Below the pieces are notes generated by a model. That model was not told the DNA's origin. It did no database searches and saw only the letters and a list, made by a program, of their open reading frames with translations. A stretch of DNA of 64,000 nucleotides, from assembly GCF_003334765.1 (NCBI RefSeq), contig NZ_QOWT01000003.1; one strand, 5' to 3'. This document shows positions 26,387 through 26,982 of this stretch, piece by piece. A program made the translations under genes and the position numbers. The stretch comes from Escherichia coli (GTDB lineage: Bacteria > Pseudomonadota > Gammaproteobacteria > Enterobacterales > Enterobacteriaceae). Numbering within the stretch: position 1 is the stretch's first letter; the number at the start of each line of letters is the position of its first letter.

Positions 26387-26466
26387 ACATATGAGAACGT
26401 TATGAATCTTGCCCTAAGAAAGATTATATATGATCCAATTAGTTATATTCATCTCAACGAGTAAGC

Positions 26467-26982
26467 TTGAATAATACACCTATTAACAATCCGGTGCTGA
26501 GATCTATTACCAATGAAATGATTCTCCTGCAGTATAATCTTTCAGTTGAACATTTTAATCTGAATAGTTCACTTATTTACTACATAAACAATTGGAATTT
26601 ACTTCCATTGATCTGTTTACTCAGTGGTTGTCACTTTTATCGAGAAAGGTTTGCAGAACGCGGGTTTTTTTATAAGGTTCCTGATGTACTAAGGGATTAT
26701 TTATCAGCTATACCGCTGGAAATAAATGAAAAGGCACGATACAAACCCGGCATCGCTAACTATCACAATATCATCACATGTGGTTTTTCAACGTTGTTAC
26801 CCTATATAAGGCAACAACCATTGGCAATGCAGCAACGATTTAATTTATTATTTCCTGATTTTGTTGACCACATACAATCGCCGTTACCACTTGCATCAAC
26901 ACTTTTAGAGAGAATTACATTTTATGCGAAAAAAAATAGAGATGAGCTTGATAAAATCTCCTGCAAATGGTGTTGTGATTAA
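26467..26982 (+). CDS. OrgA/SctK-like protein, possibly 5'-disrupted
   Basis: 171-aa ORF immediately downstream of eprK in the position of orgA; a short out-of-frame ATG ORF at 26402..26464 may hold the original N-terminus. Confidence 0.45.
   Translation: MNNTPINNPVLRSITNEMILLQYNLSVEHFNLNSSLIYYINNWNLLPLICLLSGCHFYRERFAERGFFYKVPDVLRDYLSAIPLEINEKARYKPGIANYHNIITCGFSTLLPYIRQQPLAMQQRFNLLFPDFVDHIQSPLPLASTLLERITFYAKKNRDELDKISCKWCCD

Follow-up and report, generated by a model that had tools for sequence, protein, structure and literature searches.

The window analysed here is a 64,000-nucleotide stretch of Escherichia coli DNA (contig NZ_QOWT01000003.1) which carries orgA (sctK), a gene of ETT2, the type III secretion system 2 of E. 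coli. SctK is a sorting-platform protein linking SctD to SctQ. The former coding region occupies positions 26402..26982 (all features described below are on the + strand), a length of 581 nt as compared with 582 nt in the intact gene, and contains two open reading frames (ORFs). The first starts at an ATG and comprises 20 codons (26402..26464; MNLALRKIIYDPISYIHLNE), with a TAA stop at 26462-26464, and the second starts at a TTG and encodes 171 amino acids (26467..26982). Their frames differ (26402 mod 3 = 2, 26467 mod 3 = 1), and the frame of the TTG ORF is open already from 26443, giving a 22-nt overlap with the ATG ORF (26443..26464). A first-pass annotation had described a short ATG ORF directly upstream of a TTG-starting, orgA-like ORF in another frame, and both were present as claimed. 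Judged from the alignments, these ORFs are the two halves of a single orgA/sctK gene, and orgA in the window is almost certainly a pseudogene created by a one-base deletion in codon 18, an inherited allele within a decayed ETT2 locus.

The one-base deletion in codon 18

The lesion was located by alignment with three E. coli genomes, O157:H7 JEONG-1266, EBJ001 and strain 141. The intact allele reads CAT CCT CAA CGA GTA AGC TTG, encoding H17 P18 Q19 R20 V21 S22 L23, whereas the window reads CAT CT CAA. The single length difference in this alignment was one C of a CC pair, which is gone from the window, so that the CATCCTC of the intact allele has become CATCTC, with the gap falling between 26452 and 26453. 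At the deletion site (26452..26454) codon 18, CCT (Pro), is reduced to CT, with 26453 as the remaining C. Insertion of a C after 26452 produced a 582-nt ORF with 0 differences over 582 nt from the intact orgA of EBJ001, a gene annotated by the Prokaryotic Genome Annotation Pipeline (PGAP) as OrgA/MxiK of 193 amino acids. The suggestion that an indel had split the gene near its 5' end was therefore supported, with one missing C as the indel and 100% identity to the intact gene after repair.

In both JEONG-1266 and EBJ001 intact orgA is a 582-nt coding sequence for 193 amino acids whose first codon is the ATG equivalent to 26402. The intact ETT2 gene (ECs3715 of O157:H7 Sakai; 582 bp, 193 amino acids; WP_001303643.1 and WP_001333803.1) occupies the same locus with the same neighbours, and the length of 582 bp listed for ECs3715 in Sakai (PMC3977695) agrees with the length of intact orgA found here. 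The O157 allele differs from the window orgA by one residue in the N-terminal region (D11A). Unlike the intact gene, the window copy is without one C in codon 18 and its frame is broken after residue 17. An intact ortholog lying wholly within the 26467 frame and unlike the upstream peptide, which the first-pass annotation had named as the observation that would speak against a split, was not encountered, because the intact orthologs start at the ATG corresponding to 26402.

Loss of the single C of codon 18 (CCT) from ETT2 orgA would have the following consequences. Translation from the ATG at 26402 would yield 17 correct residues, then LNE and the stop at 26462-26464, while the remaining 175 codons lie in the -1 frame. 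In agreement with this, codons 1-17 of the 5' fragment (26402..26464) are authentic OrgA (MNLALRKIIYDPISYIH), the first 17 residues of the short peptide being the same as those of intact E. coli OrgA, and are followed by the out-of-frame LNE and the TAA. The 3' part of the gene (26455..26982) carries intact residues Q19 to D193 in the -1 frame. In the repaired alignment the TTG at 26467 is the codon for Leu23 of the intact protein, so that it is only the first start-like codon in its frame and no real initiation codon. The window gene would accordingly not be expected to make functional OrgA.

Assignment to the OrgA/MxiK family

The identity of the gene was examined with profile hidden Markov models, as the first-pass annotation had proposed for the SctK family. 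The intact protein matched the NCBIfam equivalog model TIGR02555 (OrgA_MxiK; cutoff 118.6 bits) with 246.4 bits over profile positions 1-185 of 185, and the 171-residue window ORF alone matched it with 207.0 bits over positions 20-185. With the N-terminal residues added, the score thus went up from 207.0 bits to 246.4 bits, and the start of the match moved from position 20 to 1. The Salmonella OrgA model NF011851 matched the intact protein at positions 8-185 and the 171-residue ORF at 33-185, with both scores under the curated cutoff of 269, and Pfam PF09482 (OrgA_MxiK) was recovered with an E value of 2.7e-32. The gene order sctJ - sctK - sctL inside a type III secretion cluster is also that of the family. 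What the window copy does not have is a full-length frame, the codon-18 deletion leading to the stop at 26462-26464.

In a tblastn search against plasmids, matches were obtained to Shigella MxiK (residues 8-192, 26% identity), to a Salmonella OrgA fragment (residues 6-188, 29% identity) and to one plasmid-borne E. coli OrgA-like gene. OrgA of Salmonella pathogenicity island 1 and MxiK of Shigella belong to the same family as ETT2 OrgA (TIGR02555, PF09482), are about 26-30% identical to it over nearly the full length, and share with it an N-terminal IIxDPxSYIHPxR motif and a position between sctJ and sctL. They differ from the window copy in being intact genes of working injectisomes, whereas the latter is a pseudogene whose locus has decayed. 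The short peptide aligned with IIFDPLSYIHPQR in OrgA of Salmonella and with IIFDPAFYINRNR in MxiK of Shigella; its resemblance to OrgA N-termini, noted in the first-pass annotation, is therefore real, as the identity of its first 17 residues to intact OrgA also attests. In the protein alignment the N-terminal stretch belongs to the best-conserved parts, and the window peptide ends in its middle; the stretch is KIIYDPISYIHPQR for ETT2, RIIFDPLSYIHPQR for Salmonella, RVIYDPLSYIHPER for the plasmid homolog and SIIFDPAFYINRNR for MxiK. The deletion lies inside the conserved motif IIYDPxSYIHPxR, which is common to Salmonella OrgA and in part to Shigella MxiK. A search of PDB sequences with intact OrgA returned only chance-level matches (E about 0.7), and no structural inference on the missing N-terminus was therefore drawn.

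Two plasmid records were observed in the course of these searches. CP056847.1, a record labelled as a 152-kb E. coli plasmid, encodes at 132174-132752 an OrgA with 93.8% identity to that of ETT2, and could represent either ETT2 on a plasmid or a chromosomal contig that was mis-assigned. The IncF plasmid pRHB15-C07_2 (CP057785.1) carries a distinct sctJ-sctK cluster with an OrgA-like protein of 28.5% identity.

Alternative explanations and distribution of the allele

The alternative with most in its favour is that an OrgA without its N-terminus, 171 amino acids in length, is still made by termination-reinitiation at the TTG at 26467 and may retain partial function. Several observations weigh on this side and against complete loss of the gene. 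The TTG lies 3 nt past the TAA, near enough to the stop for coupling, and the GAG before it is predicted to pair with the anti-Shine-Dalgarno sequence about as weakly as that before the authentic ATG (-2.5 and -2.7 kcal/mol, respectively). The 171-residue product alone also reaches 207 bits on TIGR02555, and some low-level re-initiation, giving a protein without the first 22 residues, may occur. Such a product, however, would be without the family's most conserved N-terminal motif and would depend on TTG, a poor initiator, where intact orthologs all begin at the upstream ATG. In addition, with frameshifts in sctQ and sctU and the eiv genes largely deleted, the apparatus would be unable to assemble in this lineage and no selectable secretion function would be left. 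We therefore regard a partially functional, re-initiated OrgA as unlikely, and nothing contradicts the deletion itself. More improbable still is that a product of the decayed gene, whether the 20-residue peptide or a re-initiated 171-residue protein, has been co-opted for a non-secretion role where no injectisome forms, a reading which agrees with reports of a continuing influence of degenerate ETT2 loci on virulence.

The distribution of the deletion allele was determined among complete E. coli genomes. In a megablast search with window positions 26200-27100 the region was found on the chromosome in 3,493 of 5,426 genomes, and the 901-base query aligned to 902 bases in most of those that matched. 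A 60-mer across the deletion (26434-26493) was matched exactly, at 100%, in 105 complete genomes, as compared with 2,168 for an exact match to the intact 61-mer. The 105 carriers, which include ML35, UMNF18 and O157:H16, came from many laboratories and had human, pig, poultry or wild-animal hosts or were culture-collection strains. Over 24 kb (window 14000-38000) the window matched many genomes at about 100%; NZ_OZ547038.1 differed by 6 single-nucleotide polymorphisms and no indels. Strain NCTC9038 was not among the 60-mer matches listed, and its 24-kb stretch matched over one base less than the query.

Against this background two further explanations can be dismissed. Programmed -1 ribosomal frameshifting or transcriptional slippage might be thought to restore full-length OrgA, given the 22-nt overlap of the frames and the required direction of shift (-1), but a search of the upstream ORF (26402..26464) found neither an X XXY YYZ heptamer nor a homopolymer run of at least 4, the split is not conserved in the Salmonella, Shigella or plasmid homologs and, as it is a minority state (105 genomes versus 2,168), recoding is unsupported and was rejected as having next to no likelihood. 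An artefact of sequencing or assembly in the source genome, which single-base indels as the commonest assembly error and the intact CC of most genomes might suggest, was likewise rejected as having a negligible chance of being correct, since the identical 60-mer recurs in 105 independently sequenced complete genomes, genomes about 100% identical to the window over 24 kb share the deletion, and the site is a CC pair instead of a long homopolymer. The numbers of genomes with either allele thus identify an inherited allele and no sequencing error; the deletion would be fixed and vertically inherited in one group of E. coli strains.

Other lesions were found in orgA elsewhere in the species. The gene of strain 141 is frameshifted near gene position 265-271, where T7 has become T6, and that of strain Z1323CEC0016 has an internal stop. 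K-12-type strains matched the window only from 26584, with IS2 directly upstream and orgA annotated as 'missing N-terminus', which places one endpoint of the K-12 ETT2 deletion inside orgA. On this comparison several lineages have each inactivated orgA independently. In strain Z142-1 an IS1 element is annotated inside the matched region.

The surrounding ETT2 locus

In the matched genomes the annotation order was EscJ/YscJ/HrcJ ring protein, 'OrgA/MxiK' protein and hypothetical protein. In NZ_OZ547038.1 the order was tRNA-Gly, ygeQ, sctQ/R/S/T/U, eprH/I/J/K, orgA, a ygeK-like LuxR regulator, ygeH, ygeG and yqeH-K, and PGAP labels the interval equivalent to 26402..26982 as 'type III secretion apparatus protein OrgA/MxiK, frameshifted'. 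The locus is thus ETT2, a chromosomal epr/epa/org/yge/yqe cluster beside tRNA-Gly that is widespread in E. coli. The tRNA-Gly gene beside ETT2 is known in the literature as glyU.

Directly upstream of orgA lies eprK (sctJ; 25652..26386), the intact gene for the inner-membrane ring lipoprotein, with matches to NF011852 (308.8 bits) and TIGR02544 (218.5 bits) which both exceed the cutoff. Downstream, an orgB-like (sctL-like) ORF of 235 amino acids (26924..27631), intact in the window, shares 59 nt with the 3' end of orgA. This ORF gave a weak match to the OrgB model NF011850 (E 1.4e-14, 54.3 bits, under the cutoff of 278) and is annotated by PGAP as 'hypothetical protein' (WP_001227531.1). It is intact in EBJ001 too and is represented by two ORFs in O157 strains. 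The arrangement resembles that of Shigella (mxiJ-mxiK-mxiN), where mxiN overlaps mxiK as the orgB-like ORF overlaps orgA.

Several other ETT2 genes appear to have been inactivated in this lineage. NZ_OZ547038.1 has frameshifts in sctQ and sctU, an internal stop in the ygeK-like gene and a truncated eivJ. By annotation transfer from that genome, the window contains an eivJ/SpaN remnant, which implies a large deletion of eiv genes, together with frameshifted sctQ (epaO), sctU (epaS), lytic transglycosylase and ygeF-like genes. The internal stop of the ygeK-like LuxR regulator divides it in the window into ORFs 27853..28008 and 28039..28485. The inactivated genes occupy window intervals 18866-18985, 18945-19932, 21635-22755, 27853-28485, 28504-29006 and 31902-32391. 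With respect to eprH (PrgH/SctD; 23869-25050), the gene is intact according to the annotation of NZ_OZ547038.1 (WP_024193670.1), and the window has a 396-residue GTG ORF at this position (23860..25050). In O157:H7 JEONG-1266, EBJ001 and strain 141 eprH is a pseudogene with a frameshift, so that the ETT2 genes which have been broken differ between lineages. The orgA deletion would be one among several independent lesions inactivating ETT2 in the lineage of the window.

Mutational attrition of ETT2 was reportedly described by Ren et al. in 2004 (J Bacteriol 186:3547). The presence of several other inactivated ETT2 genes fits such published attrition, and the orgA lesion resembles it in being a point frameshift in a structural gene beside other frameshifts, stops and deletions in one locus. 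According to PMC7058095, which cites Ren et al. 2004, 'mutational attrition' of ETT2 is established; it is also summarised in PMC3977695 and PMC11068852 and holds for most E. coli lineages. In the literature searched no published description of the orgA codon-18 deletion was found, only general accounts of attrition in ETT2 and a length for ECs3715 (582 bp). The lesion is nevertheless already known, as it is flagged by PGAP in RefSeq genomes, and the pattern is well documented.

These data indicate that 26402..26982 should be annotated as a single orgA/sctK pseudogene, and not as a short ORF followed by a TTG-initiated gene. The deletion allele is a minor marker of lineage, with 105 carriers among the complete genomes searched. 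Beyond correct annotation the orgA lesion is of little importance, and represents a further example of the well-documented decay of ETT2.
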